From positions 544,148 to 608,147 of the forward strand of contig JBAZUH010000001.1 of the NCBI GenBank assembly GCA_041661545.1: a DNA stretch of 64,000 bases. Reading direction: 5' to 3'. The notes beneath the pieces are model-generated. The model was not told the DNA's origin and searched no databases. It was given only the letters and a program-made list of their open reading frames with translations. Shown piece after piece: positions 4,958-30,786 of the stretch. The position numbers and the translations under genes were made by a program. Numbering within the stretch: the first letter of the stretch is position 1; every line of letters starts with the position of its first letter. The stretch comes from Candidatus Staskawiczbacteria bacterium (GTDB lineage: Bacteria > Patescibacteriota > Minisyncoccia > Minisyncoccales > Staskawiczbacteraceae).

Positions 4958-4963
4958 GTTCTT

Positions 4964-5034: not shown

Positions 5035-5055
5035 TTTTCTTTTACAAAGTAAATA

Positions 5056-6504: not shown

Positions 6505-6528
6505 CGTTTATATATCTTAGCCTAAAAG

Positions 6529-6557
6529 TTGCTTTTTTTCAATTTTTTATGTAAAAT
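6529..6557 (+). promoter_or_regulatory. Putative sigma70-type promoter for the GNAT gene
   Basis: TTGCTT, 17 nt, TAAAAT. It lies inside the 5' extension of the ORF-track model, which argues for the ATG at 6568 as the start. Confidence 0.4.
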
Positions 6558-6567
6558 ATTGGTAAAT

Positions 6568-6906
6568 ATGAATATAAACAAAAAAGAGGTTTCAGTTCAC
6601 GGAATAAAGTTTTTTATTGAGAAAGATGGCAAAGAAGTTGCCCGAGCTTTTTTATATATAATGAACAACAATTTACACAAAGAGCCTTTTGGATTTTTAG
6701 AAGATCTTTTTGTAGATGAAGACTTTAGAGGTCAAGGAATTGGCACAGAACTTTTAAATATAGTTATTAGCGAAGCTAAAACTCAAGGCTGTTATAAATT
6801 AATAGCCAATAGCAGACATGAAAACAAGCTCGTTCATAAAATATATGAAAAAATTGGTTTTAAAAATTTTGGCATAGAATTTAAAATGTATTTAAATGAA
6901 AAATAG
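6568..6906 (+). CDS. GNAT family N-acetyltransferase
   Basis: Acetyl-CoA binding motif FRGQGIGTELLNIVISEAK. Start moved from the TTG at 6529 to the ATG at 6568 (MNINKK). Confidence 0.8.
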   Translation: MNINKKEVSVHGIKFFIEKDGKEVARAFLYIMNNNLHKEPFGFLEDLFVDEDFRGQGIGTELLNIVISEAKTQGCYKLIANSRHENKLVHKIYEKIGFKNFGIEFKMYLNEK

Positions 6907-7870
6907 ACAAAAAATTGTAACTATTGGTGGAGGCTCTGGCAGTTTTATGGTTTTAACAGGATTAAAAAAATATCCCGTAGATTTGTCGGCGGTAGTTAAT
7001 ATGGTTGATGACGGAGGGTCTACTGGTATGTTACGCGACGAAATGGGCGTTCTCCCTCCGGGCGACGTAAGGCAATGCCTAGTCGCTCTCTCGCAAAATA
7101 CTGACGTTTTAAGAGAACTTTTTAATTACAGATACGGCCATGGCGGACTAAATGGGCATAGTTTTGGAAATATTTTTTTATCTACTTTAGAAAAAATAAC
7201 TGGCGGTTTTGATAAAGCTGTAATTGAGGCTAGTAGAATTTTAAGAATAAAAGGTTATGTTTTACCCGTTACGTTAAAAAGCACAAGGCTGGTTGCTGTT
7301 TTAAAAAATGGAAAAGAAATAATTGGCGAAAAGAATATTGAACTACACAAGAGCGGTTTTAAAAAACTTTACTTAAAGCCAAAAGCCGAATTAAATCCTA
7401 AAATTTTTAAAGCAATAAAAGAAGCAGACAAAATTATAATAAACCCTGGCGATTTATACACCAGTTTAATACCAAACTTTTTAGTTAATGGACTATCAAA
7501 GGCTATAGCAAAATCTAAAGCCAAAGTAATATATGTGGTCAATTTGATGACAGAGCCGGGACAAACTGATAATTTTTCTTCAACAGACTATATTGCTACT
7601 TTAGAAAAATATGTTGGAAAAGGAATTATAAAATACGCAATTTTAAATACCGAAACCCCAGACCAAAAACTACTTAAAAAGTATGCAAAAATGGGCGAAA
7701 AACCCGTTATAAAAGGAGACACAGAAAAGTTTCCAGAAATAATATTTTTAGAAAATAAAATATTAAGTCATGCAATCCATAAAATTAATAAAAACGATAA
7801 GCTTGCGTCTGAAAGATCATTAATAAGACACAACCCCGATAAATTAGCAAAAATAATTTACAATTTATGA
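6896..7870 (+). CDS. YvcK/CofD-family protein (gluconeogenesis factor-like, UPF0052)
   Basis: 324 aa with IVTIGGGSGS and VVNMVDDGGSTGMLRDE..PPGDVRQC. Confidence 0.85.
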   Translation: MKNRQKIVTIGGGSGSFMVLTGLKKYPVDLSAVVNMVDDGGSTGMLRDEMGVLPPGDVRQCLVALSQNTDVLRELFNYRYGHGGLNGHSFGNIFLSTLEKITGGFDKAVIEASRILRIKGYVLPVTLKSTRLVAVLKNGKEIIGEKNIELHKSGFKKLYLKPKAELNPKIFKAIKEADKIIINPGDLYTSLIPNFLVNGLSKAIAKSKAKVIYVVNLMTEPGQTDNFSSTDYIATLEKYVGKGIIKYAILNTETPDQKLLKKYAKMGEKPVIKGDTEKFPEIIFLENKILSHAIHKINKNDKLASERSLIRHNPDKLAKIIYNL

Positions 7871-8484
7871 TTTTACTTTTTGATTTAGACCATACTATTT
7901 TAGATGTAGAAAAATTTAAAAAAGAAAAAAGTAAACTTTTTAGATTAACTCCAGAAGAAAACGAAAAGCACGGTTTTGAACTTTTTAAAAAACACGGAAA
8001 AGGGTACAACCCATATCAACATATAAAATTTTTGCGAGATTCAAATCATATACAAACTGACAAAGAAGCTGAAATTATTACCCAACAATTTAATGAAGCA
8101 ATCAAAGATACTGATAAATATTTAATAGATGGGGCCGAAAACACCCTCTCTTACCTAAAAGAAAAGGGGTATAAAATGGTGTTAATGACTTTTGGAGACT
8201 TACAAATGCAAAAACCAAAAGTAGATAATTCAAGAATAAAAAAATATTTTGAAAAAATAATATATTCTGAAAAAGATAAATCAGAAAATGAATTTTTAAA
8301 AGAACTAGCCAACTCAAATGAAGATGTGCTCATTATTAATGATCATGCAGAACAGTCTCTAGCAATGCAAAAAGTTATAGGGCCTAAAGCTAAAATATTT
8401 TTAGTTAAAGGGCCTTATGCTGAAAATACTGATCATAAAGAAACTATACATAACAATATAAATGAGCTCAAAAACATACTCTAA
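7867..8484 (+). CDS. HAD-superfamily hydrolase
   Basis: 205 aa. Motif I is LLFDLDHTILD. The start overlaps the upstream gene by 4 nt. Confidence 0.65.
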   Translation: MILLFDLDHTILDVEKFKKEKSKLFRLTPEENEKHGFELFKKHGKGYNPYQHIKFLRDSNHIQTDKEAEIITQQFNEAIKDTDKYLIDGAENTLSYLKEKGYKMVLMTFGDLQMQKPKVDNSRIKKYFEKIIYSEKDKSENEFLKELANSNEDVLIINDHAEQSLAMQKVIGPKAKIFLVKGPYAENTDHKETIHNNINELKNIL

Positions 8485-8485
8485 A

Positions 8486-8514
8486 TTGTTTTTTAAGGCT
8501 TTTTAGGTTAAAAT
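8486..8514 (+). promoter_or_regulatory. Weak candidate promoter for the tRNA-Arg / pilin / tRNA-Lys unit
   Basis: TTGTTT, 17 nt, TAAAAT, about 18 nt upstream of the tRNA-Arg 5' end. Confidence 0.35.
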
Positions 8515-8531
8515 AACAATAAGTTAATTTT

Positions 8532-8607
8532 GCCCTCGTGGTGAAATCGGATATCACACTTGGCTTCGAACCAAGAATTCCGGGTTCGAGTCCTGGCGAG
8601 GGCACCA
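8532..8607 (+). tRNA. tRNA-Arg (anticodon TCG), CCA encoded
   Basis: GCCCTCG/CGAGGGC acceptor stem, anticodon stem CTTGG/CCAAG with loop CTTCGAA, T-arm CCGGGTTCGAGTCCTGG, 3' ACCA. Confidence 0.9.
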
Positions 8608-8615
8608 CAACAAAC

Positions 8616-8987
8616 ATGAATAAAAAAATACTTTTGTCGGTTATTATATTATCATTAGCCTTGACTCCATTATTAGCCATGGCAGTGGACGAGGGGCTAG
8701 TAAAATGTGGAAATGACGTTAATAATCCATGCGACTTAGATGATTTTATGACAATACTAGATGATATTTACACATTTATAGTTTACACAATAGCCGCTCC
8801 TCTAGCTGTTATTGCTATTATAATTGGTGGCGTATTAATGATGACTTCTGCAGGCAACCCCAATATGATGAGCCTAGGTAAAAAAGTTTTTTGGTCTGCT
8901 ATTATAGGACTAGTTTTAGCTTTTGGGGCAAAAGCCATTATTAATTTTGTTCTTGAAGTTGTCGGGTATAATAAGGAACCAATATAG
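8616..8987 (+). CDS. Free-standing T4SS-type (VirB2/TrbC-like) pilin-module protein
   Basis: MNKKILLSVIILSLALTPLLAMA signal peptide, then two TM helices separated by a short Gly/Lys loop (..IIIGGVLMMTSAGNPNMMSLGKKVFWSAIIGLVLAF..). The start was moved from 8538 because that extension overlaps tRNA-Arg. Confidence 0.6.
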   Translation: MNKKILLSVIILSLALTPLLAMAVDEGLVKCGNDVNNPCDLDDFMTILDDIYTFIVYTIAAPLAVIAIIIGGVLMMTSAGNPNMMSLGKKVFWSAIIGLVLAFGAKAIINFVLEVVGYNKEPI

Positions 8988-9008
8988 TAACCAAAATTAT
9001 AATCATAT

Positions 9009-9084
9009 GCCCCCGTAGCTCAATTGGTAGAGCAGTTCCCTCTTAAGGAATTGGTTCCGAGTTCGAGTCTCGGCAGGGGCACCA
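9009..9084 (+). tRNA. tRNA-Lys (anticodon CTT), CCA encoded
   Basis: GCCCCCGTAGCTCAATTGGTAGAGCAGTTCCCTCTTAAGGAATTGGTTCCGAGTTCGAGTCTCGGCAGGGGCACCA with anticodon loop CTCTTAA. One acceptor-stem mismatch. Confidence 0.88.
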
Positions 9085-13810: not shown

Positions 13811-14566
13811 TTATATGCCTGTATTTTGATTTTCTTGTGACTCAGTAAAGTTTCCATTTTCAAATTCAACCTCCTCACCCACTTGCGAAGACACACCTTT
13901 TTTTGGCACCTGCAATTGTTTTTGAAGATGGTTAATTTGAGATGATAACAATTGTTTTGTGTTTCTTGCATCGGTTATTATTTTTTCAATTAAACCTTGT
14001 AAGAACTTTTCTCTTTCTACTAATTCATTATCTTTGGCCTTATAATCAATAAGCAATGATTCATATTTCTTAATCCAGTCTTTTTTCTCAGCCCGGTCTT
14101 CTTTTAATATTTCTAAAAACTCTCGGTCAACGGTTATTTGATCGGGCGCATAAGCGGTGGGCTCGGCGCTTCTGCGATTTGGCTTAGGTTCTTCTGACCG
14201 CTTAAGCGGTTCTTCTAACTGACTAGATATTTCACTAGACTGTTCCGGTACCACCGCATAAGCGGTAGGCTCGGCGCTTAAGCGGTTTGGTTCAGGTTCA
14301 TCTGACCGCTTAAGCGCTTCTTCAGACCGCTTAAGCGGTACCGCATAAGCGGTTTCTTTTGCTATAGCTTCTAACTCTTTAACCCAAAAATCTTCTTTTA
14401 AAAGAATAACATTCCCCACTCCTTTGTCATACCTTTCAGTTAAAACTCCCTCTAATTTTTGTGGGTCTACCAATCTATACTTTCTAATTCTTCTTCTAAT
14501 CCTAACATCTGGAACTTCATATTTTTGAATAAATTCTTGTATTGTTAAAAATTCGTTATTATCCAT
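13811..14566 (-). CDS. HTH-like (excisionase/MerR-type N-terminus) protein with an internal tandem repeat and a C-terminal coiled coil
   Basis: 251 aa. N-terminus FLTIQEFIQKYEVPDVRIRRRIRKY. Two repeats of about 36 aa (..LKRS[DE]EP[EK]PNR.SAEPTAYA..). The CDS contains 4 perfect and 3 degenerate copies of the palindrome found upstream. Confidence 0.5.
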   Translation of the reverse strand: MDNNEFLTIQEFIQKYEVPDVRIRRRIRKYRLVDPQKLEGVLTERYDKGVGNVILLKEDFWVKELEAIAKETAYAVPLKRSEEALKRSDEPEPNRLSAEPTAYAVVPEQSSEISSQLEEPLKRSEEPKPNRRSAEPTAYAPDQITVDREFLEILKEDRAEKKDWIKKYESLLIDYKAKDNELVEREKFLQGLIEKIITDARNTKQLLSSQINHLQKQLQVPKKGVSSQVGEEVEFENGNFTESQENQNTGI

Positions 14567-14588: not shown

Positions 14589-14724
14589 CGCTTAAGCGGT
14601 AGGGGTGACCGCTTAAGCGCTTTTAGGCACCGCTTAAGCGATACCGCTTAAGCGCTTTTAGGTACCGCTTAAGCGATACCGCTTAAGCGCTTTTAGGTAC
14701 CGCTTAAGCGATACCGCTTAAGCG
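14589..14724. repeat. Array of 8 perfect CGCTTAAGCG palindromes (alternating 21/14-bp spacing)
   Basis: Copies start at 14589, 14610, 14631, 14645, 14666, 14680, 14701 and 14715. The higher-order unit is ACCGCTTAAGCGATACCGCTTAAGCGCTTTTAGGT (35 bp). The array lies directly upstream of the 13811-14566 gene. Confidence 0.95.
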
Positions 14725-14774
14725 ATTATTGATTAATTCTATCAACCAGATAAAGTGATGTCAACCTTAACAAT

Positions 14775-14804
14775 AAAAAAGCCCCGCCAAGGCGGGGCTT
14801 TTTT
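14775..14804 (-). terminator. Terminator of the LysM-M23 peptidase gene
   Basis: AAAAAAGCCCCGCC-AA-GGCGGGGCTTTTTT. Confidence 0.8.
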
Positions 14805-14808
14805 ATTT

Positions 14809-15957
14809 CTATTTATAATTAATTGTTGACCCTCTACTATATCCTGCCAAAGGATTTCTTACCCCCACAACTTGAAAGTGAACGTGACATCCCGTTGATC
14901 TACCAGCACCGGCCATACCCGGCTTGCCACCCATCAAACCAATATTTTGTCCTGTATAAACTTTTTCACCTGGCGAAACTAACACAGTCATTAAGTGTCC
15001 GTAATAGGTAACTGCTCCATTGCTATGTAAAATTGTAACATGGTTTCCCATACCAGAATTATATTTACCATTACCCACAGCTCTTTGAACAACTCCAGCG
15101 GCTGCAGCATAAATTGGAGTTCCACATTTATTGGCAACATCAACAGCATTAAAGTAGTGAAGTCCTTGAGTAATTCGTCCCTGTGTTGGAAAAATAAAGA
15201 AATTATTTGCTACAGGAATTCTAGTATTATTATTCTTTATTGGAGCTGCTTTCTTAGGCATTACTCCTTCTGGCACCACTAAAATATCTCCTATATAAAC
15301 ATCGTTTTGATTAGCCAAGTCATTATAGGCAATTATGTTTTCTGATTTAGATTTATATTGCGAAGCAATAGCTGAAATAGTATCTCCAGATTTTACAACG
15401 TGCAACACTCCATCTGTTGGCAAAATTACTAAACTATCTCCAACTTTAATTTTTGAAGAAGATGTTAAATCGTTTGCCCAGAGTAGGGTATCAAGAGATA
15501 TTTTATGGGCTTGGGCAATAGATTTAAATGTATCACCTGTTTGAACTTCGTAATCAATTATGTCTTTACTCTCTTGATAATTACCTCCAAAAACATCTCC
15601 TAAAACTTTGCCCGAAACAATGCACGGCGTTGATACAGCACAAACTGTATTGTCTTGTATTATTTTTAAATCAGGAGTTTCTAGGGCAATCATATCTGAT
15701 TGGCTAGAGAATAAACTATCTACAATTGCACCATTTGGGTTGTCAAAAGAATTTAAAAATATGCTACGGCTGTGGCCTAAATTGTCTGAAGCTTCGCAAG
15801 ACATATAAATACCAATAAATATAAAAATAGCTATTAAACCGAAAAAAAACAAAGGATTCTTTGATGATCCTCTAAAACCAGCCCCTTTCTTTGAGTTCTT
15901 TGTGGAGGGCCAAACCTTCTTTATCCCTATTAATAATTTGTTAATTATTTTTAACAA
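14809..15957 (-). CDS. LysM-domain M23 family metallopeptidase
   Basis: 382 aa. N-terminal TM, two LysM repeats (YEVQTGDTFKSIAQ.., HVVKSGDTISAIAS..) and M23 motifs HLMT, GCHVHFQV. Confidence 0.9.
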   Translation of the reverse strand: MLKIINKLLIGIKKVWPSTKNSKKGAGFRGSSKNPLFFFGLIAIFIFIGIYMSCEASDNLGHSRSIFLNSFDNPNGAIVDSLFSSQSDMIALETPDLKIIQDNTVCAVSTPCIVSGKVLGDVFGGNYQESKDIIDYEVQTGDTFKSIAQAHKISLDTLLWANDLTSSSKIKVGDSLVILPTDGVLHVVKSGDTISAIASQYKSKSENIIAYNDLANQNDVYIGDILVVPEGVMPKKAAPIKNNNTRIPVANNFFIFPTQGRITQGLHYFNAVDVANKCGTPIYAAAAGVVQRAVGNGKYNSGMGNHVTILHSNGAVTYYGHLMTVLVSPGEKVYTGQNIGLMGGKPGMAGAGRSTGCHVHFQVVGVRNPLAGYSRGSTINYK

Positions 15958-16093
15958 CTTGTTTCTAGCTTAGCATTTTCAAACAAGCTAGTCAAATAGT
16001 TATGCACAATTATTTGTCTGCTATTTTAAGAAAAAATATGTAAAAAAAGAGCGCCATATTTGTGAGATAGACGCATAACAGCAAGAAAGGATT

Positions 16094-17518
16094 TCACGGA
16101 ATGTCCGTAGATTTGGCTATCGCTTGGGCGGGGTTTTGAGCCTTCCATGCGCCCGAATCAGTAGAGCTGTAGACATATCCGCCCATGACCGTCGCAGTCA
16201 TACTGCGAAAGTCTACGGATGCGGACACGTCAGACCAATTCTGCTTGTCGGCAACCGGCTCCCAATCCACCCCGAAATTGCCAGAGGTGTAAAGCGAGCC
16301 TCCAGACTCTGCAGCCAAGAATCGACGACCATCGCCCGAACACTTAATGGCCACCCATTTCCGAACATTGTCGGTTAACCGTGGTTGCCACGTCTGCATA
16401 AAGTCAGTGGAGATGTAGATATATCCACCATTTACAGTGGCGCCCCAAAACTGGGCGTTATAATTGGTTGTTAGGTCCGTCCAATCGCGGGACTCGCCAA
16501 CGGGCTTCCATGTCTGGCCCCCGTTGTAGGACGCATAAAGCCAACTATTGGAGGCTGCTACCCCCCGAAATTGACCACCAAAATCCATCTCGCCAGCCAC
16601 CCAATTCGGGCCAGCAAACCCGGTCGTCTCCCAGCTATCCCCCCAATCATACGTCTGCCAGATGTATCCACCTGGATCAACGGCCATCAGAAGTTGGCCA
16701 TCATCAGAAGTTGCTACGGACCTCCACCGGATTTTCAGGTCGCCCTCATAGGGCAAGTCGTATGCTTTCCAGGTCTGACCATAGTCAGCGGACCCATATA
16801 ACTCTCCATCAAGGGTCCCTATAATCTGGTTTTGGCCATAATAGGACACGGCGACGCAGGAAGGTTTATCTATATCTACGGTCCGCCAAGTGCTCCCGCC
16901 ATCGGCGGAGACATAAACTGGCGCGTTGCCAGCGATAAGCGTCCTATATTTTCCGTCACCAGACATGGAAGCACCGTTCCATGCAAGACTGGGACTGCCC
17001 ACGGCAGGTGAGGGGGGATTGGGTGTGTTACCACCATCGCCACCACCACCATTGCCACCGCCAGGACCTCTGCTCCCATCTCCTCCACCAATGGGGCCGA
17101 AAGAATAAAATGGAACAGATTCCTTGGTCTTATGCCTGATTATGGGGCTCCAATTAGCATAAGCCGTTGGTGTCGTCGCAGGATTAGATGTTGTTGTGCG
17201 CGAACCAAAGTTGGTTCGTGCAATGCTCGCCTGCGGGGCAACAACCTCTGCTCGAGGAATATTCGTGCCAGCTCTCTTTAAACTGACTTGGCCTTCGTTG
17301 TGTCCACTGGATTTCAAATTCCAGGGCTTGTATTTGTTCGCGGTCAAGCCTTGACCCGACCTAAACAATTTCAACGACGGCCTTTCGGGCTCGCTGAGCC
17401 ACACTACAAAAAAGATCGGCACTAGCAGTGCCAGTAGAGTAGCGCCCAGTTTCTTGAGCCCTATCTTCTGCAAAACCGCCGTCGCGGTAGAAATCTTCTC
17501 AAGGCTTTTTGTGTTCAT
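16094..17518 (-). CDS. Membrane-anchored Asp-box (BNR) repeat beta-propeller protein, on a GC-rich island
   Basis: Seven SxDxGxTW-like boxes (SADGGSTW, SADYGQTW, TYDWGDSW, SYNGGQTW, STDFMQTW, TSGNFGVDW, STDSGAW). Gly/Pro linker and TM anchor. ATG at 17518 is preferred over the GTG at 17581 because AAGGAG sits 10 nt upstream. Confidence 0.7.
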   Translation of the reverse strand: MNTKSLEKISTATAVLQKIGLKKLGATLLALLVPIFFVVWLSEPERPSLKLFRSGQGLTANKYKPWNLKSSGHNEGQVSLKRAGTNIPRAEVVAPQASIARTNFGSRTTTSNPATTPTAYANWSPIIRHKTKESVPFYSFGPIGGGDGSRGPGGGNGGGGDGGNTPNPPSPAVGSPSLAWNGASMSGDGKYRTLIAGNAPVYVSADGGSTWRTVDIDKPSCVAVSYYGQNQIIGTLDGELYGSADYGQTWKAYDLPYEGDLKIRWRSVATSDDGQLLMAVDPGGYIWQTYDWGDSWETTGFAGPNWVAGEMDFGGQFRGVAASNSWLYASYNGGQTWKPVGESRDWTDLTTNYNAQFWGATVNGGYIYISTDFMQTWQPRLTDNVRKWVAIKCSGDGRRFLAAESGGSLYTSGNFGVDWEPVADKQNWSDVSASVDFRSMTATVMGGYVYSSTDSGAWKAQNPAQAIAKSTDIP

Positions 17519-17604
17519 GGCTGACTTTCTCCTTTCCAAAAAGTTTTCAATGCTAGAAGTGGTTGACAAAATGTCTTCCACGTTGCTTCTAGCGTGCTAC
17601 TTCA

Positions 17605-17633
17605 ATAATGCTATTTAAAGTGCATCTTGTCAA
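17605..17633 (-). promoter_or_regulatory. Putative promoter of the BNR gene
   Basis: The minus strand reads TTGACA, 17 nt, CATTAT. Confidence 0.45.
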
Positions 17634-17674
17634 GGGTTTTTCACTTGCTTCTATATATATGATATAATACACAA

Positions 17675-18535
17675 ATGAATTTAACTTCTCCAACCATAAT
17701 AAAAGAACTTCTTTCAAAATATAAAACCCGGCCTTCAAAAGGATTGGGGCAAAATTTTTTAATAGATAAAAATGTTTTAAGAAAAATTATTGAAGCTTCA
17801 AATATAAAACCAACAGATATTATTTTAGAAGTGGGGCCGGGCATTGGCATACTAACTCAAGAATTAGCCAAACATGCAAAAAAAGTTATAGCAATTGAAA
17901 AAGATTTTACAATGTGCGAAGTTTTAAAAGAAACTTTGTCTGATCTTAAAAACATTCAAATTGAAAATTGTGATATTTTAAAATTTATTGAAAATTGGAA
18001 ATTGAAAATTGAAAATTATAAGGTAGTTGCCAACATTCCATATTATTTAACTTCGCCATTAATTAGAAAATTTTTAGAAAACCCACCAGGTGGGGAACAG
18101 CCACAAGAAATAATTTTAATGATACAAAAAGAAGTTGCTCAAAGAATTTGTGCAAGCCCGCCAAAAATGAGTTTGCTAGCAGTGTCAGTGCAATTTTATG
18201 CAGAACCTAAAATTATAAGTTATGTTACAAAAAATTGTTTTTGGCCTGCACCCAAAATTGATTCTGCAATAATAAATATCAAGCCCAAAAATAATTTTAA
18301 TAAAGAAATAGATGTTGATGCATTTTTCAAAGTTGTTAAAGCAGGTTTTTCGCAACCAAGAAAACAACTTGTGAATAACTTGACTACCTTAAAATATTTA
18401 GATGGTGTAAAATTAACAAAAGAAGAAATTTCTAATTGGCTTTCTAAAAATAATTTAAAATCTAATCAACGGGCCGAAAGCCTAACAATCAACGATTGGG
18501 AAAATCTAACAAACAGTTTTTTAACTTTAAAATAG
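17675..18535 (+). CDS. rsmA: 16S rRNA (adenine1518/1519-N6)-dimethyltransferase
   Basis: 286 aa with GQNFLIDKNVLRKI, EVGPGIGILT and VVANIPYYLTSP. Confidence 0.92.
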   Translation: MNLTSPTIIKELLSKYKTRPSKGLGQNFLIDKNVLRKIIEASNIKPTDIILEVGPGIGILTQELAKHAKKVIAIEKDFTMCEVLKETLSDLKNIQIENCDILKFIENWKLKIENYKVVANIPYYLTSPLIRKFLENPPGGEQPQEIILMIQKEVAQRICASPPKMSLLAVSVQFYAEPKIISYVTKNCFWPAPKIDSAIINIKPKNNFNKEIDVDAFFKVVKAGFSQPRKQLVNNLTTLKYLDGVKLTKEEISNWLSKNNLKSNQRAESLTINDWENLTNSFLTLK

Positions 18536-18539
18536 AATC

Positions 18540-20525
18540 ATGTTTCAACAATTCTCATTTCTAAAAAATAAATATTTATTTTTCACTCTTTTCTGTTTTA
18601 TTATATTACTAGGAGCATTAATGCCCGTACACGTCTTAGCCGAATCAAATGACAGTGCTGGCTGGGGTAATACAGGAGATAGATCAAAAATAATAAATCT
18701 ATTTACTTCTGCATCTCCTGATTCTTTCTCTCCCGAAGGTGGTTGGGATGCAACAACGTGGCCCAAATATTTAATTGGATATTTATTATTTTCAATCGTA
18801 TGGCTAGCCTTCAAAATAGCTGCTTTAGCACAGTTGTTATTATCTTATGTATTGGGTGTAATTGTAAGCTTATCAATAACCAAAGATCCTAATTGGCTTC
18901 CAATATGGGGCAGCCTTAGAGATTTAGGAAATATGGTTATTGTATTGGGATTCGTAGTAGTAGGCATTGCTACATCTCTAAGATTTAAAGACTATGAAGC
19001 TAAAAAGATCTTGTTGCCTTTGATACTAGTTGCTATTCTAATCAACTTCTCCGGATTAGTTTGTGGATTAATTATAGATGCGTCTAATTTAGTAACTACT
19101 GGATTAATAGAGGGAAGTGAAGCTTCCATGATGCCATATAACGTCTTACAACAAATGATTCTCGTTAGCTCGTGCGTGCATACCACAGGACACGATGCGG
19201 GGCCCGATGCATATGTTGAAGTATCAACGTCAGTAAACACCCCCTCGTGTATTTCAACCGAAAATTATGATAAAGATCTTAAAATATTTATAGCAATATG
19301 TTGTTTATGGATGATTTTGTACTTAGCCATAGGTCTTACATTTTTATATATGGCAGTTTTACTTTTGGCAAGATATGCCATTTTAATAATGTTATTTATA
19401 TTATCTCCTTTAGCTTTCACTTTCTGGGTTTTTCCAATTACTAAAAAATTGTGGCAAGAGTGGTGGAATCATTTTGTAAAATGGTGTTTTGTTGGAGTCT
19501 ATGCATCGTTTACTCTCTACATAGCTACTACCATTATAACAAAAGTGCCCATCGTGGGAGGCACTGCAGACAACCTGAATAGTGACTTATGGCAACTAAC
19601 TCTTGTATATTCTATTGCAATAGTATTTTTGATTGTTGGATTTAAAATGACCGTCAGCAAGGTTGGAGGAGCCGCTGTAACAGCTATTTTGGGACTAGCA
19701 ACTGGTGGCGCGGCTTTGGCCGGTAGAGCAACCCTTGGTGCAACCAAACTTGCTGGAAGAGGAATCGGAGCCGGAGCCAGAGCATTAGATAATAAAGCTA
19801 CTGGCGGAAAGGTTACTTCGGCGATAGGCAACATGGGTAGGAAGGTTGGTAGCAGTACCGGAAGATTTCTGGATGCTATGGCAGGAACTCCTGGTGCTAG
19901 AGCTGGAGGTGTAGCGAAAGAATTCTCAGCAGGCTCTGATAGAATTGGAGATATGGATTTAGCCAGCCAAGTTAAATTAGCTTCAGGCAAAGGAATGGGT
20001 GGCATGGCAAGAACAAAAGAAAGAGCTGAGGCAGTACAAGCCTTGGCAAAAAGCGGAAATCTTTGGAGAATTAGCGATGATATAAATGAACAATCAAGAG
20101 CCGTTAATTTTGCAGATAAATATATGCAAAGCAAAGGGATAGATGCCACTAAATTTAGAGGGGACGTTAGCAAGAATGCTCCTGTGCTAGAAGCATACAA
20201 TCGTCCTATTGTAGAAAAAATTCAACAACAGCATCCAAATTGGAGCCCTGCTCCCGACGCAAGCTTGGGTGGATTAACTCGAGCTCAACATGAAGCGGTT
20301 GTACGTGCAGTAGCGAGAATGCCAGAAGACGGTTTAAATGCCAGCACGGCAAAATCAATGCATCATTCTGCTATAACAGCAGCGGGAGCTAGAATGAACG
20401 ATAGAAAAAAACAAACATGGCAAAAAGCTTCTTATAATGATATGCGCCAAGAGGCGCTGGCTATGAATGCTGGGCCAGAACAAACCGCCTTGGCAGAAAG
20501 AGCAAGAGCAATGTTTGATTTATAA
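18540..20525 (+). CDS. Polytopic membrane protein, TrbL/VirB6-like by architecture
   Basis: 661 aa. Signal peptide (..VHVLAES), at least 6 TM helices, Gly/Ala-rich segment, hydrophilic C-terminal third. No motif-level proof. Confidence 0.5.
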   Translation: MFQQFSFLKNKYLFFTLFCFIILLGALMPVHVLAESNDSAGWGNTGDRSKIINLFTSASPDSFSPEGGWDATTWPKYLIGYLLFSIVWLAFKIAALAQLLLSYVLGVIVSLSITKDPNWLPIWGSLRDLGNMVIVLGFVVVGIATSLRFKDYEAKKILLPLILVAILINFSGLVCGLIIDASNLVTTGLIEGSEASMMPYNVLQQMILVSSCVHTTGHDAGPDAYVEVSTSVNTPSCISTENYDKDLKIFIAICCLWMILYLAIGLTFLYMAVLLLARYAILIMLFILSPLAFTFWVFPITKKLWQEWWNHFVKWCFVGVYASFTLYIATTIITKVPIVGGTADNLNSDLWQLTLVYSIAIVFLIVGFKMTVSKVGGAAVTAILGLATGGAALAGRATLGATKLAGRGIGAGARALDNKATGGKVTSAIGNMGRKVGSSTGRFLDAMAGTPGARAGGVAKEFSAGSDRIGDMDLASQVKLASGKGMGGMARTKERAEAVQALAKSGNLWRISDDINEQSRAVNFADKYMQSKGIDATKFRGDVSKNAPVLEAYNRPIVEKIQQQHPNWSPAPDASLGGLTRAQHEAVVRAVARMPEDGLNASTAKSMHHSAITAAGARMNDRKKQTWQKASYNDMRQEALAMNAGPEQTALAERARAMFDL

Positions 20526-20543
20526 ATATTAATTAATAATATA

Positions 20544-21167
20544 ATGGTAAATAATCAACAAAAAATTATTATTTTTGAGAATCAAGGCTCTAAAAGCATA
20601 TGGGCGATTATTTCAGAAGTTTTAAAAGATAATGGGATGGAAGAAACAGCCATTGATTTTTTCAAAAAAGTGGACGAGAAGAAAATACCATTTTCAAGCA
20701 TAATATATAAATTATCTAGAAAACTTGCTCAAGAAGAAATTACAGAAGAAAATTTTGTTACATCAATCAAAGACCAATTAAAAATTGAGCAACAAGTTGC
20801 TGAAAAAATATTAAAAGATGTAAAAGAAAAAATTTTACCGCTGGCTAGAACGCTTGAAAAAGATGAACTAGTAAAAGATGAAACAATTAGCACTGTGCCA
20901 CAGAGCCTAAAAACAATAAATAAAAATTTCTCACCGGCAACAGAAAAAAATAACATAAATATTTCTGGCTCAGAAATTTTGGCTAATGAGCCAATAGATT
21001 CTTTGCCAAAAAATGAAACTCAAAATATTGCAAACACAATTACTCCTGCGACCATTGAAACACCAACAAAAAGAATTAGAAAACCTTTACCTAAAAAACC
21101 TTTTGTACCAGAAACTCAACCAACACAACCTAGCAAGCCAGATTCTTATAGAGAACCTATAGAGTAA
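20544..21167 (+). CDS. Hypothetical protein with Pro/Thr-rich C-terminus
   Basis: 207 aa, follows the VirB6-like gene on the same strand. Confidence 0.45.
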   Translation: MVNNQQKIIIFENQGSKSIWAIISEVLKDNGMEETAIDFFKKVDEKKIPFSSIIYKLSRKLAQEEITEENFVTSIKDQLKIEQQVAEKILKDVKEKILPLARTLEKDELVKDETISTVPQSLKTINKNFSPATEKNNINISGSEILANEPIDSLPKNETQNIANTITPATIETPTKRIRKPLPKKPFVPETQPTQPSKPDSYREPIE

Positions 21168-21180
21168 AAGCAGTAAACAA

Positions 21181-21209
21181 CCCCACACCAATTTCGGGTG
21201 GGGTTTTTT
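21181..21209 (+). terminator. Terminator after 20544-21167
   Basis: CCCCACACC-AATTTC-GGGTGGGG followed by TTTTTT. Confidence 0.7.
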
Positions 21210-21213
21210 ATTT

Positions 21214-21270
21214 AAAAAAAGGGGCGAGCTTCGTGGTGTCGTGTAAAAAACGACACCATCGAAGCCCGCC
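21214..21270 (-). terminator. Long-stem terminator of the GC-rich SPFH-like gene
   Basis: GGCGAGCTTCGTGGTGTCGT / ACGACACCATCGAAGCCCGCC form an imperfect stem of about 20 bp. The T-run is on the minus strand. Confidence 0.6.
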
Positions 21271-21289
21271 TTTGGGTTATGTTCTGAGG

Positions 21290-22468
21290 TTACAGGCCGT
21301 CCAAATCGTCCGGCCCCAACTCTATCGCTGGCGGAGGCGAACCTCCACCAGGCTGATTGCGTCTGTCACCACGACGATTCCCCCCGTCTCCCCGAGCCAA
21401 TGGCTGAAGAGCATTGCCGAGTTCGCGTGCCAACGTAACACCGGCTGCGAAGTTGGCCTCAATCGGTTGGCCACCGCTGGTGACATCAAACTTGGTGAAT
21501 CCGCGACCAGCGAGCGCCTGCGATCGTAGTTGCTCAAGCGCCTGTTTATGTTGAGCATATTCACCACTTCTTTTCAGCTTGGCAACGAGTTTCTTCATCG
21601 CCACCGAATCCGACGAGTCAACTCCCGCGAGCCTTGCTTCTTCGGTAATCCATTCTTGCATGGCAAGCTGGACCGGGCCAAAAACCCGCGCCTTTTCGCC
21701 TTCAGCCAACAATTGCTGTTTGCTTTTGGCCTCCAAGGCTTCCTGATATCCGGGCTGGTATCCCACATCTTCAACGATGACAGAATTTTCCAGAATCCGA
21801 AGACCCCAGTCATTTTCCATCGTCGTGAAAACAGGAAGCGATCCCTGATTAACCAGGTCTTGCCAAAGCTGGGCGCCATTACCCCTGGCGGCTTGAGCAC
21901 GCTCTTGTGAACCGCCACGAACCCATGCTCGCAACGTTGAATCCATCCGCCGTATAACCTGAGCGCTAACGTCGCGGGGTGCCACAAACAGCCATTTGTA
22001 CAGGTTGACGATTCTCATGACGGAAACGAATTTCACGTCAAGTGGAACGCTCTCAGGAGCTGCCGTTTCTGCTTTAGAGATCATGGGTTCAGGAGCGACG
22101 TTTCCGACGCGGACATGAATGCCCGCACCAAACATGTCGGCACTTCCATTCTGCTGAGCGTATCGAACGGCCGAGACAAACGGCCATAGATAAATCACCC
22201 AGCCCCCAAAACGGCACATAAACCATGACCCCTGGCCATAGCCGTCGGGGTAATCTCCCTCGACAACGTTGCCGTTTTCATCGAAGCCATGCCCCCTGAA
22301 ATTCATCCCTAGGTAGCAGAAGCTACCGAAGCTGAGAAAGGCAATGGCTGTGCCTTCTCGGATGATTGCCACCCTAATAATACGCAACGCCCAGAGGAGG
22401 AAGATTGTGAAAATCATCCACCAAAGGTGATCGCTCAGCCAATCGAACACTGAATATATCGCTTGCAT
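21290..22468 (-). CDS. Membrane-anchored SPFH/band-7-like protein, on a GC-rich island
   Basis: Start taken at MQAIYSVFDW (ATG at 22468). N-terminal TM. The segment IIREGTAIAF...VKFVSVMRIVNLYKWLFVAP.DV resembles an SPFH fold pattern. Coiled-coil and Gly/Arg-rich tail. Confidence 0.45.
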   Translation of the reverse strand: MQAIYSVFDWLSDHLWWMIFTIFLLWALRIIRVAIIREGTAIAFLSFGSFCYLGMNFRGHGFDENGNVVEGDYPDGYGQGSWFMCRFGGWVIYLWPFVSAVRYAQQNGSADMFGAGIHVRVGNVAPEPMISKAETAAPESVPLDVKFVSVMRIVNLYKWLFVAPRDVSAQVIRRMDSTLRAWVRGGSQERAQAARGNGAQLWQDLVNQGSLPVFTTMENDWGLRILENSVIVEDVGYQPGYQEALEAKSKQQLLAEGEKARVFGPVQLAMQEWITEEARLAGVDSSDSVAMKKLVAKLKRSGEYAQHKQALEQLRSQALAGRGFTKFDVTSGGQPIEANFAAGVTLARELGNALQPLARGDGGNRRGDRRNQPGGGSPPPAIELGPDDLDGL

Positions 22469-22609
22469 TTTGGTTGTTGGTTGTTGGTTGTGGTTGGTTG
22501 GTTTTGAACAGTCACTTAACGGTTGGCGCGAGAACACCTCGCTCCACACAGGAATTACCCTGCGTTCATAATGAAAACCGTGTTTGACAATGTTCTTTCA
22601 GATACATTT

Positions 22610-22638
22610 ATTATATCATATTATACGCACCTTGTCAA
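22610..22638 (-). promoter_or_regulatory. Consensus sigma70 promoter of the SPFH-like gene
   Basis: The minus strand reads TTGACA, 17 nt (AGGTGCGTATAATATGA), TATAAT. Confidence 0.6.
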
Positions 22639-22664
22639 TACGTACTCTAACGTGTGAATAACAC

Positions 22665-22695
22665 TTGTATCTACTAATAATTATTATGGTATAAT
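22665..22695 (+). promoter_or_regulatory. Candidate extended -10 promoter of the T4SS-like operon
   Basis: TTGTAT, 19 nt spacer, TGGTATAAT. Confidence 0.4.
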
Positions 22696-22712
22696 AAATG
22701 AAATCAGAAGCA

Positions 22713-22797
22713 CGAAATCCGAAACTCAAAATAAATTCAAATTTTCTAAATTCGAAATATAAAATACGTTTCGAATTTCGATATTCGAATTTCGAAT
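22713..22797. repeat. CGAAT/TTCGAA-rich repeat block in the operon leader
   Basis: CGAAW at 22713, 22720, 22753, 22772, 22779, 22786 and 22793. The last four are 7 bp apart (TTCGAATTTCGATATTCGAATTTCGAATTTC). Four TTCGAA palindromes occur within 50 bp. Confidence 0.7.
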
Positions 22798-22818
22798 TTC
22801 TTTTGCTTCACAAAAGCT

Positions 22819-23226
22819 ATGGAACAATATCCTATACCACAATTTATTGAAGCAGAAAGTAAAATTGCTTTTTTCATATCTTTTAAACAATTTTTCTACT
22901 TAGTAGGGGCGGGGCTTATTTGTTTTTTTCTATATTACATTTTGCCTCGTGCAATTTTTTATGTAGTCGCGTCTATAATTTTTATTGCTGCGGCAATATT
23001 AGCCTTTGCCACCATAAATGGAACTCCTATAATAAACATCATTTTAAATTCAATTGGTTTTTCTATGGGTGGCAAAAACTATACATGGAAGAAAAAAGAA
23101 TCTCCCTATCCATTTAAACCAATTTCAAGAACTAAAATTAAAAAAATAGATGTGGGGCCAGTGTTACAAGCACAAACAAGCCAGCTAAAAAAAACTAAAA
23201 CATTAATAGACTTAAAGACTAAATAA
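22819..23226 (+). CDS. PrgI/VirB3-like small membrane protein
   Basis: 135 aa. YPIPQFIEAESKIAFFISFKQFFYL followed by two TM helices, positioned directly upstream of VirB4. Confidence 0.6.
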   Translation: MEQYPIPQFIEAESKIAFFISFKQFFYLVGAGLICFFLYYILPRAIFYVVASIIFIAAAILAFATINGTPIINIILNSIGFSMGGKNYTWKKKESPYPFKPISRTKIKKIDVGPVLQAQTSQLKKTKTLIDLKTK

Positions 23227-23248
23227 TTTCTAATTAAAAATTAATATT

Positions 23249-23908
23249 ATGGCAGAATCTGCAACACAAGCATTTTTAGAAGTGCAAGATATAAGAGAAG
23301 GAGTTTTGCTTTTAAAAAATAATTCTATTAGAGGAATTTTAATGACTTCTTCTATAAACTTTGCTTTAAAGTCTGAAGAAGAACAAACTGCTACAATATA
23401 TGCCTTTCAAAGTTTTTTAAATTCATTAGACTTTTTTTGCCAAATTGTTATTCAATCAAGAAATATAAACATTACTCCATATTTAGATAGTTTAAAAGAT
23501 TTAGAAAATAAACAAACAAACGAATTATTAAAAAAACAAACTATCTCATACAGAGAGTTTATAAAAGAAATGGTGGTGGGGGATGTAGTTATGACAAAAA
23601 GTTTTTATATAGTTATACCATATAATCTTATGGAAATTTTTGGGTTAAAGGGTGCCCAAAAAAAATTCAACTTTGGAGATGCCTCGGGCGGAGCAAACAA
23701 CAAACCAATGGGTGATGATGATTTTGAAAGATGCAAAACACAACTTTGGCAAAGAATGGAATATGTATCTATGGGGCTAAGAAGATGTGGCCTAGAAGCT
23801 GTTCCATTAACTACGCCAGAACTCATAGAATTATTTTGGTCTATACACCATCCCGATCAAGCAGAGGTGGGGTATTATCCAGAAATATTACCCGAATTAT
23901 TAAAATAA
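23249..23908 (+). CDS. Probable detached N-terminal domain of VirB4 (ICE/Firmicutes type)
   Basis: 219 aa. FLEVQDIREGVLLLKNNSIRGILMTSSINFALKSEEEQTATIYAFQSFLNSLDFFCQIVIQS resembles the N-terminus of Orf16-type VirB4 ATPases (from memory). Confidence 0.4.
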   Translation: MAESATQAFLEVQDIREGVLLLKNNSIRGILMTSSINFALKSEEEQTATIYAFQSFLNSLDFFCQIVIQSRNINITPYLDSLKDLENKQTNELLKKQTISYREFIKEMVVGDVVMTKSFYIVIPYNLMEIFGLKGAQKKFNFGDASGGANNKPMGDDDFERCKTQLWQRMEYVSMGLRRCGLEAVPLTTPELIELFWSIHHPDQAEVGYYPEILPELLK

Positions 23909-23926
23909 TAATTTAAAATTATTGCC

Positions 23927-25732
23927 ATGGATTTTTTTAATAATATTTTTGGAAAAAAAGAGGAAGACTTAACAGAACAAATTTTTAAAGAAGAAGCTTT
24001 TGATGTAAAAGATATTATAGCTCCTCCATATATTGGGGTTCTTCAAGACCATATAAAACTAGGCGAAAGACTTGCTAAATCTTTTTTCGTTTTTTCTTAT
24101 CCTAGATATTTAAATACTGGTTGGTTTTCTCCTGTTATAGATTTAAATACTCCAATGGATATTTCATTTTTTATACATCCTGTTAGTAGTGAATTAATTT
24201 TAAAAAAATTAAGAAAAAAAGTTACAGAGGTTTCTTCAGAACTTTTAGAAAGAGAAGAAAAAGGTTTAATTAGAGACCCTTCTCTAGAAACAGCCTATAA
24301 AGATATTGAAGCGCTACGCGACAATTTAATGACTGCTCAAGAAAAAATGTTTAGGCTTGGTCTTTATATAACAATTTACGAAACCTCTGAAAAAGAATTA
24401 CGAGAAACCGAGCTTACATTAAGATCAATTTTTGAATCTAGATTAATTTATATAAAACCTGCTTTGTTCAAGCAAAAAGAAGGTTTTATTTCTTGCAATC
24501 CTTATGGAATGGATTTATTAGATGTTCACACCCCCATGGACACAGCTCCCTTATCAACTTGTTTTCCATTTATTTGTTTTGACTTAAGCTCTAACGAAGG
24601 AATTTTATATGGCATAAACAGACATAATAATTCTTTAGTTTTATTTGATAGATTTAGTTTAGAAAATGCCAACATGGTAGTGTTTGCAAAATCTGGTTCT
24701 GGAAAATCTTTTGCTATTAAATTAGAAATTTTAAGATATTTAATGCAAGGCATAGACTGCATAATTGTTGACCCAGAAAATGAATATGAGTTTTTAGCCG
24801 ATGCAGTTGGGGGAGCATTTTTAAAAATTTCTTTAACATCTGCAAACCATGTAAATCCTTTTGACTTGCCCGTGCCAGGGCCAGATGACAACCCACAAGA
24901 TATTTTAAGATCTAACGTTATAAACTTGGTGGGACTTTTAAGAATTATGTTAGGAGGCTTAACCCCAGAAGAAGATAGTATTTTAGACGAAGCTCTAACA
25001 GAAACTTATGCAATAAGAGATATAACTGCCGAATCAGATCCAACAACATGGGCTAACAACACTCCATTAATGTCAGACTTTCAAGAAGTTTTACAAAGTA
25101 TGACTGGAACAGAGTCTTTAGTAAAACGTATTGGAAAATTTACCAAAGGAACTTTTTCTGATTTCTTTAACCAACAATCTAATATTACTATGGATAAAAG
25201 TTTGGTTGTTTTTGGAATTAGAGATATGGAAGAGTCGCTAAGACCTATAGCCTTATATATTATTATGAGATATATTTGGAATACTGTAAGACAAAAATTA
25301 AAAAAAAGAATTTTAGTTATTGATGAGGCATGGTGGTTAATGCAGTCAGCTGATGGAGCATCTTTTCTTTTTGGGATAGTAAAAAGAGGAAGAAAATATT
25401 GGCTAGGCGTAACTACAATTACGCAAGATGTGGCCGACTTTATGAAATCAGATTATGGCAAAGCAATTGTTACCAACTCGTCTTTGCAACTTTTAATGAA
25501 GCAATCAACAGCTGACATTGATTCTGTTCAAAAAGTTTTTCAATTAACAGAACAAGAAAAATATTTATTACTAGAAGCCGCGGTGGGCGAGGGGTTGTTT
25601 TTTGCAGGCAAAAAACATGTATTTTTATCTGTAGTTGCAAGTCAAACAGAAAGTCAAATAATTACTACCAACCCTCAAGAAGTTTTAGCAAACAGACAAG
25701 CCAAAAAAGATTTAGAGTCAGCACAAAATTAA
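23927..25732 (+). CDS. VirB4/TrbE/CagE-family T4SS ATPase (C-terminal two thirds)
   Basis: 601 aa with Walker A FAKSGSGKSF, Walker B RILVIDEAWWLM and TTITQD. Confidence 0.85.
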   Translation: MDFFNNIFGKKEEDLTEQIFKEEAFDVKDIIAPPYIGVLQDHIKLGERLAKSFFVFSYPRYLNTGWFSPVIDLNTPMDISFFIHPVSSELILKKLRKKVTEVSSELLEREEKGLIRDPSLETAYKDIEALRDNLMTAQEKMFRLGLYITIYETSEKELRETELTLRSIFESRLIYIKPALFKQKEGFISCNPYGMDLLDVHTPMDTAPLSTCFPFICFDLSSNEGILYGINRHNNSLVLFDRFSLENANMVVFAKSGSGKSFAIKLEILRYLMQGIDCIIVDPENEYEFLADAVGGAFLKISLTSANHVNPFDLPVPGPDDNPQDILRSNVINLVGLLRIMLGGLTPEEDSILDEALTETYAIRDITAESDPTTWANNTPLMSDFQEVLQSMTGTESLVKRIGKFTKGTFSDFFNQQSNITMDKSLVVFGIRDMEESLRPIALYIIMRYIWNTVRQKLKKRILVIDEAWWLMQSADGASFLFGIVKRGRKYWLGVTTITQDVADFMKSDYGKAIVTNSSLQLLMKQSTADIDSVQKVFQLTEQEKYLLLEAAVGEGLFFAGKKHVFLSVVASQTESQIITTNPQEVLANRQAKKDLESAQN

Positions 25733-25759
25733 AATTTAAAAAATCCTATAATTATACAA

Positions 25760-29725: not shown

Positions 29726-29736
29726 TATTTTATAAT

Positions 29737-30759: not shown

Positions 30760-30786
30760 TTTTTGTGATATTTCTAATATATATAT

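Follow-up and report, generated by a model that had tools for sequence, protein, structure and literature searches.

A GC-rich Asp-box propeller gene of Candidatus Staskawiczbacteria: probably a long-resident accessory module in a leader-equipped slot beside a type IV secretion system-like locus

Does a single gene that departs sharply from the base composition of a very AT-rich genome have to be a recent arrival? The question is raised by a beta-propeller gene found in a 64,000-nt stretch of DNA (the window), part of a contig of 737,971 bp in a metagenome-assembled genome (MAG) of Candidatus Staskawiczbacteria, a member of the Patescibacteria or Candidate Phyla Radiation (CPR). A first-pass annotation of the window had described this gene as a GC-rich single-gene island with sharp edges, provided with its own Shine-Dalgarno (SD) sequence and promoter, and had suggested its recent horizontal acquisition, possibly from a host. 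The analysis reported here upheld the island and did not bear out the recent acquisition. The gene is probably an accessory surface-protein module, foreign-like in origin but long resident, placed in a variable, leader-equipped slot beside type IV secretion system (T4SS)-like machinery.

The compositional contrast was evident in all the measures proposed for it, namely sliding GC content, tetranucleotide composition and codon usage. In 200-nt windows, GC content rose from 0.31 at positions 15900-16099 to 0.55 at 16100-16299, at the 3′ end of the gene, remained between 0.48 and 0.60 across it, and fell to 0.345 and then 0.27 by 17500-17799, past its 5′ end, with a step at both gene ends. The open reading frame (ORF) presented a GC content of 0.527, against a median of 0.33 for the 61 ORFs of the window, and the excess was found at the first, second and third codon positions (GC1, GC2 and GC3 of 0.51, 0.53 and 0.54, compared to window medians of 0.43, 0.32 and 0.22). 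Moreover, its tetranucleotide distance from the window mean reached z = 7.7, the top value jointly with a second island described below, its dinucleotide signature (delta* = 0.163) lay at the 98.7th percentile, and its relative synonymous codon usage (RSCU) correlated with the resident gene pool at r = –0.08, compared to 0.89-0.97 for resident genes. The gene therefore shows the atypical composition by which recent genomic islands are recognized. The flanking ksgA gene was not GC-enriched (GC3 0.18). The propeller coding region also carries two runs of six G on the minus strand (16559-16564 and 16641-16646), unusual at a genome GC of 31% and too short to serve as an argument for phase variation.

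Since such an abrupt change could betray a chimeric assembly, both junctions had been singled out for verification. It was observed that a 3,315-nt contig from the independent Logan assembly of SRR18595301 is 100% identical to the window over positions 14695-18009, crossing both junctions, and that the same arrangement recurs in two further assemblies from other samples. The orthologue P0002 (GCA_964998225.1, L001) shares 52-55% amino acid identity with the window protein and occupies the same slot, between ksgA and a gene coding for a LysM and peptidase M23 protein, with a GC content of 0.52 (0.50-0.57 along the gene) compared to 0.30-0.37 in its flanks. Similarly, a 515-aa orthologue in L090 (JGI Ga0494704_000014, 214,916 bp) shares 31-34% identity, the slot and the layout of anchor, stalk and propeller; its GC content is 0.46 and its GC3 0.37, and the VirB4 of L090 is 93% identical to that of the window. 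At conserved four-fold degenerate sites, the window gene and P0002 presented an identity of 0.35 against 0.27 at random, the resident neighbours giving 0.45 against 0.31, and the GC content at conserved four-fold sites was 0.58 and 0.51 in the propeller pair and 0.21-0.39 in the neighbours. Therefore, considering the near saturation of synonymous sites, the shared slot and the retained GC content, the propeller gene has been in this slot since before the split of these species-level lineages, and it has been GC-rich throughout.

The slot itself was defined by a neighbourhood comparison in which the same region was drawn from 80 genomes with ksgA as anchor. The gene order is conserved in Staskawiczbacteria and beyond, and comprises pnp, a gene for a coiled-coil protein, a dksA-like gene, the M23/LysM gene (reverse), ksgA and a VirB6-like gene, followed by the genes for a 207-aa protein, an SPFH-like protein (reverse), PrgI, a 219-aa protein, VirB4, a large protein and pilins. 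In most relatives, the gap between the M23/LysM gene and ksgA is only 55-130 nt and contains nothing but the –10 box of ksgA and the M23 promoter. In the window genome and in L001, L090, L004 and L005, an insert of approximately 1.0-1.8 kb separates these two promoters. The upstream part of the insert is common to the five genomes and consists of CTTGACA, a spacer of 17-18 nt, a –10 box, a leader of approximately 85 nt, an SD of the GAAAGGA(G) type and an ATG. The cargo that follows differs, being the propeller gene in three genomes, a gene for a 291-aa transmembrane protein in L004 and one for a lipoprotein in L005. The L004 protein was considered as a possible relative of the propeller and set aside, as it showed only a weak, non-significant resemblance (BLASTP E = 0.32), located in the N-terminal anchor.

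Altogether, the same promoter, leader and SD were found at seven sites in six related genomes, in front of unrelated cargo, including small transmembrane proteins encoded in the slot between ksgA and the VirB6-like gene (Table 1). The conservation extends to ATGAACAC, which forms the first codons of three different cargo genes. All the leader-bearing genomes belong to one subclade in a tree of ksgA and M23, and the propeller gene is present in 3 of approximately 20 related loci. The seven leader-following ORFs were all enriched in GC3, by 0.11-0.32 over their genomes, and their products are membrane-anchored or lipoproteins. Being accessory is not in itself enough to give a gene a high GC content, because small accessory ORFs placed between ksgA and the VirB6-like gene in L006-L008 presented a resident-like GC3. 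Among 361 ORFs from 19 related loci, an SD precedes 16 of the 25 GC-rich ORFs and 24 of the 336 others (Fisher p = 2e-11). Judged by these sequences, the promoter, leader and SD make up a regulatory module found repeatedly within the subclade, and they were not imported with the propeller gene alone.

The signals that the first-pass annotation had assigned to the gene are indeed present (Table 1), and they are not private to it, as the same ones stand ahead of unrelated cargo. A scan of the region returned five promoter-like sites, against 3.6 ± 1.9 in shuffled sequences, which taken alone is not above chance; the promoter is supported because it is conserved in relatives, the CTTGACA –35 box and the –10 box at 17-18 nt being kept upstream of all seven leader copies in the six genomes. 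The statement that resident genes mostly lack an SD was also sustained, since 58 of the 60 genes in the window are free of SD-like motifs, the other two being the propeller gene, alone in having a 5-mer, and a gene with a 4-mer. Upstream regions of window genes are A/T-rich, the 3′ end of the 16S rRNA lies outside the window, and translation in this genome appears to begin mostly without an SD. Although the longest ORF opens at a GTG (17581) upstream of the ATG at 17518, this ATG is the likely start codon, because the SD precedes it and the deposited 474-aa protein agrees.

The leader hairpin opens approximately 11 nt past the –10 box. A covariance model of the leader (R1), trained on four leaders, recovered copies outside the training set in L090 (E 1e-10), L009 (E 1e-8) and, weakly, L004. 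In the alignment, 94.9% of the pair cells were paired, compared to 33-48% in slid controls, and compensatory changes occurred in 8 of 12 pairs, a count taken from only seven sequences in an alignment fitted to the model. The secondary structure of the leader is conserved, with covariation support. The window copy folds at a minimum free energy of –20 kcal/mol (z = –2.2), and no Rfam covariance model matched the leader with E up to 1 over positions 15900-17800. At the other end of the module, the terminator-like element was missed by a terminator scan because its loop is too long; L001 and L090 share its GGCGC(T/C)CTTTTTTT, and the cargo genes of L004 and L005 end in equivalent elements of a stem plus a T-run, just ahead of the M23 promoter.

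As for the product, its description as a membrane-anchored, seven-fold SxDxGxTW propeller with a linker was borne out by a transmembrane segment, a stalk carrying the Gly-rich run GGGDGSRGPGGGNGGGGDGG (residues 144-163; 17030-17089) and seven predicted blades, with two of the seven motifs conforming strictly to S-x-D-x-G-x-T-W. Hydropathy placed the hydrophobic segment at residues 24-42 (windows 19-45 above 1.6), and an AlphaFold2 (AF2) model, built with 21 homologues as input, presented helices at residues 3-18 and 21-41. No cleavage motif was seen at the N-terminus on inspection by eye, and the two Lys at residues 22-23 point to an N-in/C-out topology with a type II membrane anchor. The stalk is collinear in both orthologues and poorly conserved in sequence in the alignment. 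The modelled propeller comprises 28 strands, arranged as seven blades of four, at residues 180-461, with a predicted local distance difference test (pLDDT) score of about 90. Asp-box-like motifs occur at residues 204, 243, 289, 330, 370, 412 and 452, with a period of approximately 40, and SxDxGxTW is present in each blade of the 21-homologue consensus. The Pfam profile Sortilin-Vps10 (PF15902; BNR clan) scored 41.2 bits, above its gathering cut-off of 33 (E = 1.3e-10), and a PDB profile search matched sortilin (1e-32), GH74 and Ycf48. The best Foldseek matches were Ycf48/HCF136 (E 4e-15; probability 1.00, as for other seven-bladed propellers; target-normalised TM-score 0.60-0.67), further ones being designed seven-bladed propellers, WD40 proteins and GH74. 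By motif, profile threshold and fold, the protein is a member of the BNR/Asp-box propellers.

Asp-box repeats and significant profile matches also link the protein to two groups of BNR-repeat enzymes, the GH74 xyloglucanases and the bacterial sialidases. In GH74 enzymes the active site lies between two seven-bladed domains arranged in tandem, while sialidases (GH33) are six-bladed, with a catalytic Arg triad and a FRIP motif. A GH74 identity was discarded, as the AF2 model has only one propeller (180-461), the remainder being anchor and stalk, and a sialidase identity was discarded because seven blades were modelled, not six. A catalytic role is, on the model, unlikely, and the protein would be better read as a displayed binding module, because a single seven-bladed domain fits neither the GH74 nor the sialidase architecture.

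With respect to the source of the gene, the nearest relatives beyond the three orthologues share only 28-34% identity. The distant homologues that could be placed lie in contigs of 50-58% GC, one of them with a gene cluster for ribosomal protein S2, EF-Ts and RRF, and they match these contigs in composition. Constraint at the protein level was rejected as the cause of the high GC content, since the GC of one homologous propeller, carried by a contig of 32% GC, is 0.35. Among the closer homologues, P0005 (32% identity) was found in L085 (Logan SRR24390601, 31 kb, 32% GC), where its neighbours include Radial_spoke_3 and Kelch-repeat proteins, a content that suggests a eukaryotic or otherwise unusual source for this contig. 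No relative of the protein was found in a scan of the GTDB species genomes; a metagenome scan with the two-orthologue alignment returned only matches at 28% identity, and a profile search with the three orthologues gave no closer relatives. No match was obtained by tblastn against phages, and the single one against plasmids, at 31% in a Variovorax replicon, gave no evidence of an origin in mobile elements. An origin outside the resident genome is plausible, because the slot is empty in most relatives, the distant homologues are GC-rich and the fold does not force a high GC content; no donor is named, because no relative above 34% identity was found outside the orthologues.

The window holds a second single-gene island of the same kind in the T4SS-like cluster, coding for an SPFH/Band-7-like protein with a Gly-rich, charged tail (Table 1). 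In at least 14 related loci, 13 of them ksgA-anchored and the other L090 (L003-L005, L008-L012, L014-L016, L055, L090 and L091, besides the window), the gene that occupies this slot, between the gene for the 207-aa protein and PrgI, is an outlier in GC3. The SPFH-slot proteins are 13-38% identical, compared to 74-93% for VirB4, and those of the window and L003 share 15% identity although their VirB4 proteins share 90%. The GC3 of the slot gene follows that of the resident genes with an offset of +0.24 ± 0.06 (r = 0.67, p = 0.013), and nearly all copies are preceded by TTGACA-17-TATGnTATAAT (an extended –10), a structured leader of approximately 100 nt and AAGGAG. The window copy does not have the SD of its relatives and carries instead a CAA-rich run, AACCAACCAACCACAACCAACAACCAACAACCAAA (22472-22515, minus strand), before its probable ATG at 22471; a perfect TTGACA-17-TATAAT promoter lies further upstream. 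The motif CATTGWMAAA was considered as a link between the two leader types and rejected, with two occurrences against 2.4 expected and a pattern that does not match the leader of the propeller gene. Three islands of the window, unrelated to one another, have a nearly equal third-position composition (A 0.16-0.19, C 0.27, G 0.25-0.29 and T 0.26-0.31). A common donor for the four GC-rich genes of the window was not supported, as their RSCU correlations were only –0.22 to 0.30.

The explanation favoured here, and held to be probable, is that the locus carries a self-contained expression module made of a promoter, a hairpin leader with an SD, an ORF and a terminator. This module is flanked by the promoters of the M23/LysM hydrolase gene and of ksgA, which are divergent, and it lies at the margin of the chromosomal T4SS-like locus. 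In its product, a short helix in the cytoplasm and a single transmembrane helix would be followed by a disordered stalk of approximately 120 residues and, outside the cell, by a seven-bladed propeller acting as a binding module rather than as an enzyme. The stalked propeller probably mediates contact with a host or with an envelope ligand. The propeller gene was probably present in the ancestor of a subclade; three of the sampled genomes would then have retained it, two would have exchanged it for other membrane-protein or lipoprotein genes behind the same leader, and it is absent from others. The hairpin could stabilise the 5′ end of the messenger, and the SD would let ribosomes start on an mRNA that is GC-rich and more structured, in a genome whose other genes nearly all do without one. 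We infer lateral transfer or cassette swapping as the origin of the module.

Several observations weigh against this explanation. In the rough tree of ksgA and M23, the three propeller-bearing genomes are not monophyletic, and vertical descent with losses is for this reason not distinguishable from lateral swapping. The absence, in any collection searched, of a relative above 34% identity outside the orthologues leaves foreign origin to be argued from composition and patchy distribution alone. Moreover, under an F81-type decay calibrated on the saturation of resident genes, approximately 55% of the compositional excess would have been lost per lineage since the window genome and L001 parted, which would require a GC content at four-fold sites (GC4) of about 0.8-1.0 at that point. 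Such a GC4 is possible only with a very GC-rich donor and mismatches the GC1 of 0.51 of the propeller gene. When synonymous changes were polarised with L090 as outgroup, the predicted 5:1 excess of GC-to-AT changes was not seen, in a count where parsimony gives an AT-to-GC excess even in equilibrium resident genes. Simple amelioration fits badly, and therefore something may actively hold the propeller gene GC-rich, a force that the favoured explanation leaves unaccounted for. The main rival takes this up and states that the GC-rich genes are long-term residents whose composition is maintained by a local force acting at all three codon positions, with foreign origin unnecessary; mRNA selection (for stable, RNase-resistant, strongly expressed transcripts needing an SD), DNA selection and GC-biased gene conversion at a recombination hot spot are candidate forces. 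Given the persistence at the second slot, this is a serious, if less probable, possibility. It is consistent with the SPFH-slot gene being an outlier in so many loci despite its divergence, with its offset tracking resident GC3, with the promoter, leader and AAGGAG of nearly all its copies, with the strong link between SD and GC-richness, with the near-equal third-position composition of the three unrelated islands and with the absence of any sign of ongoing GC-to-AT decay in the propeller gene in the polarised count, which is biased. On the other hand, we know of no bacterial mechanism that shifts GC3 by 0.25-0.3 in single genes only, and the reported effects of gene conversion on GC amount to a few percent. 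The flanks, where crossovers would fall, are not enriched (ksgA), the L090 orthologue has drifted in GC3 in line with slow decay, and the incongruence between slot-gene and neighbour similarity in the window and L003 is a better fit to replacement. A related and slightly more tentative proposal is that these genes form a distinct expression class, that of fast-diverging membrane or surface genes near the T4SS with a sigma-70 promoter, a structured leader, an SD in an otherwise SD-less genome and a GC content kept at about 50% in every codon position through long stretches of evolution, in which GC would be no fading mark of transfer and would be tied to SD-dependent translation or mRNA stability and the leader would serve as a plug-in slot for exchanged host-contact proteins.

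The remaining explanations are far less probable. If the gene had been transferred recently, by itself and together with its promoter and SD, from a donor of higher GC content, for instance a host, this would account for the foreign look of all its codon positions and of its dinucleotide signature, for a canonical SD in an otherwise SD-less genome and for the distant homologues in 50-58% GC contigs. Such a recent transfer is largely refuted by the same-slot orthologues, at 54% and 31% identity, in two species-level genomes with near-saturated synonymous sites, and it is now very unlikely; the promoter, leader and SD are common to unrelated cargo in relatives, and no close donor was found in any collection searched. 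In addition, no integrase, transposase or recombinase domain was seen in the ORFs neighbouring the propeller gene, where no systematic search was made, no boundary repeats or target-site duplications appeared when filled and empty sites were compared, and the nearest tRNAs lie at 4887-9081. Slightly less probable is a mobile, promoter-carrying gene cassette whose hairpin would be an integron-like recombination site permitting movement between slots and genomes. The presence of the same leader at two slots (M23|ksgA and ksgA|VirB6) with different cargo, the conservation reaching into the first codons of three cargo genes and the own terminator of each cargo gene would suit such an element; however, no integrase or recombinase was seen among the ORFs examined beside any copy, target-site duplications are absent, the sample comprises only seven copies, and a hairpin placed within the transcribed 5′ leader, beside the SD, suits a role in RNA. 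Finally, an assembly chimera or a binning contamination, which the abrupt change in composition might have suggested, is practically out of the question in view of the identical Logan contig across both junctions, the same arrangement in two other assemblies and the length of the contig.

Table 1. Coordinates of the propeller module, its flanks and related features (window positions, except where another genome is named).
Feature	Position	Strand	Basis and remarks
Downstream flank: LysM + peptidase M23 (VirB1-like cell-wall hydrolase)	14809..15957	-	Pfam
Promoter of the M23/LysM gene	within 15958-16010	-	Block TGTGxATAACTxTTTGAC...TGGTAA, conserved in all relatives with or without cargo
Terminator-like element	16042..16074	-	Stem GCGTC ... 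GGCGC, then TCTTTTTTT; read from sequence
Propeller coding sequence, 474 aa	16094..17518	-	Identical to NCBI WC711_03095 (Ca. Staskawiczbacteria MAG); GC3 0.54
Seven-bladed Asp-box (BNR) beta-propeller, residues 180-461	16136..16981	-	AF2, Foldseek, profiles
Disordered stalk rich in Ser, Thr, Pro and Gly, residues 45-167	17018..17386	-	pLDDT < 50 (AF2)
N-terminal signal-anchor: transmembrane helix, residues 21-41, after a Lys-rich cytoplasmic helix, residues 3-18 (predicted)	17396..17458	-	Hydropathy, AF2
Shine-Dalgarno AAGGAG	17534-17529	-	10 nt ahead of ATG 17518
5′ leader, ~85 nt	17519..17604	-	Two-tier hairpin 17593-17552, outer stem GCTAGAAG/CTTCTAGC, then CATTGAAAAC, then SD
Sigma-70-type promoter: TTGACA (17633-17628), 17-nt spacer, CATTAT (17610-17605)	17605..17633	-	10/12 consensus matches
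Upstream flank, divergent: ksgA (RrnaAD)	17675..18535	+	Pfam, synteny
VirB6-like gene and rest of T4SS-like cluster	18540-32085		After ksgA
Second GC-rich single-gene island: transmembrane-anchored SPFH/Band-7-like protein	21290-22549	-	GC 0.54, GC3 0.555; weak Pfam match, E = 0.01
Small transmembrane protein behind the same leader, ksgA-VirB6 slot	L005 10878-11262		96 aa, GC3 0.41
Small transmembrane protein behind the same leader, ksgA-VirB6 slot	L009 7485-7768		~64 aa, GC3 0.49

The genes that surround the module, VirB4, VirB3/PrgI, VirB6, VirB2-like pilins, the VirB1-like M23/LysM protein and KsgA, resemble those of the T4SS locus described for Patescibacteria (PMC12102498), although the propeller gene corresponds to no described component of it. 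In that study, KsgA was found near the chromosomal T4SS, VirB1-like M23/LysM hydrolases were reported in Paceibacteria, and epibiotic growth was found to require the chromosomal T4SS-like locus in the only organism examined (PMC12102498). The neighbourhood of the propeller gene, with its VirB1-like M23/LysM hydrolase, agrees with that description, in which the terms 'GC content' and 'propeller' are absent (PMC12102498).

Other departures from the resident composition were observed in the window. The C-terminal third of the VirB6-like protein (19600-20525, plus strand) is Gly/Ala-rich and its DNA has a GC content of 0.45-0.53, a rise attributable to amino acid content and not to synonymous sites, the GC3 of the gene being only 0.285. 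Between the dksA-like and M23 genes, a 251-aa protein (13811-14566, minus strand) contains two copies of a duplicated internal segment, AYAVPLKRSEE…PNRLSAEPTAYA; the local GC content of its gene reaches 0.46-0.485, and L005 carries GC-rich ORFs at the same place (L005 4810-5647). Further GC3 outliers, relative to the median of 0.22, are the genes at 60019-60651 (plus strand, 0.51) and 45476-45895 (plus strand, 0.42), which are without SD and code for small proteins with hydrophobic segments and no significant Pfam match; a CTTGACA lies approximately 70 nt upstream of the former (59949). Moreover, the intergenic DNA that separates the SPFH-like gene from PrgI (22650-22818) is filled with palindromic repeats similar to ATTCGAAAT/TTTCGAATT, and a closely similar array occupies the same place in L009; such an array may represent operator or binding sites.

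Comparison with known systems helps to delimit what the module resembles. The Ycf48/HCF136 and Sortilin-Vps10/BNR propellers share with the window protein the S-x-D-x-G-x-T-W motif at a period of approximately 40 residues and the single seven-bladed propeller. They differ from it in that identity is only 15-18%, the sortilin 10CC module is missing, and a type II anchor with a 120-residue stalk replaces a lipoprotein or lumenal signal. Ycf48/HCF136, an assembly factor of photosystem II, acts on D1 in photosynthetic organisms, where a conserved Arg patch binds the D1 peptide; we know of no phototrophs among CPR bacteria, and no photosystem genes were seen among the window ORFs examined. The likeness to Ycf48 would thus be one of fold only.

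In its genomic setting, the slot recalls the variable surface-antigen loci placed between conserved flanks, such as the O-antigen rfb locus (galF-gnd) and the pneumococcal cps locus (dexB-aliA), with which it shares conserved flanks, differing cargo, persistent atypical composition, surface products and fast divergence. Unlike these loci, the module consists of a single gene rather than a biosynthetic cluster, its cargo is GC-richer and not AT-richer than the genome, and the promoter, leader and SD are kept while the ORF changes. Similarly, stem-loops at the 5′ end that stabilise mRNA in combination with a strong ribosome-binding site are known from monoderms, for example the Bacillus aprE leader and the ermC leader, which also present a hairpin a few nucleotides from the predicted 5′ end, with a canonical SD after it. 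Those leaders are unrelated to the present one in sequence, and in this genome an SD is the exception. The propeller belongs to an established protein family. GC-rich genes that persist in an SD-less CPR genome and are preceded by an SD and a structured leader were not found in the literature searched, and no description of these GC-rich islands was met in the literature on CPR, GC content, horizontal gene transfer, T4SS and Staskawiczbacteria.

CPR bacteria live attached to host cells, and the surface molecules by which they choose and hold a host are largely unknown. In this context, a leader-equipped variable slot beside a T4SS, occupied by a propeller or by other membrane proteins, makes its products good candidates for host-specificity factors. 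The locus also cautions against reading every sharp GC-rich single-gene island in very AT-rich genomes as a recent transfer, since the same islands are met again at matching positions in different species. Finally, the association between SD and GC-richness in an otherwise SD-less genome offers a direct route to studying how translation starts in these bacteria and why a few of their genes differ.

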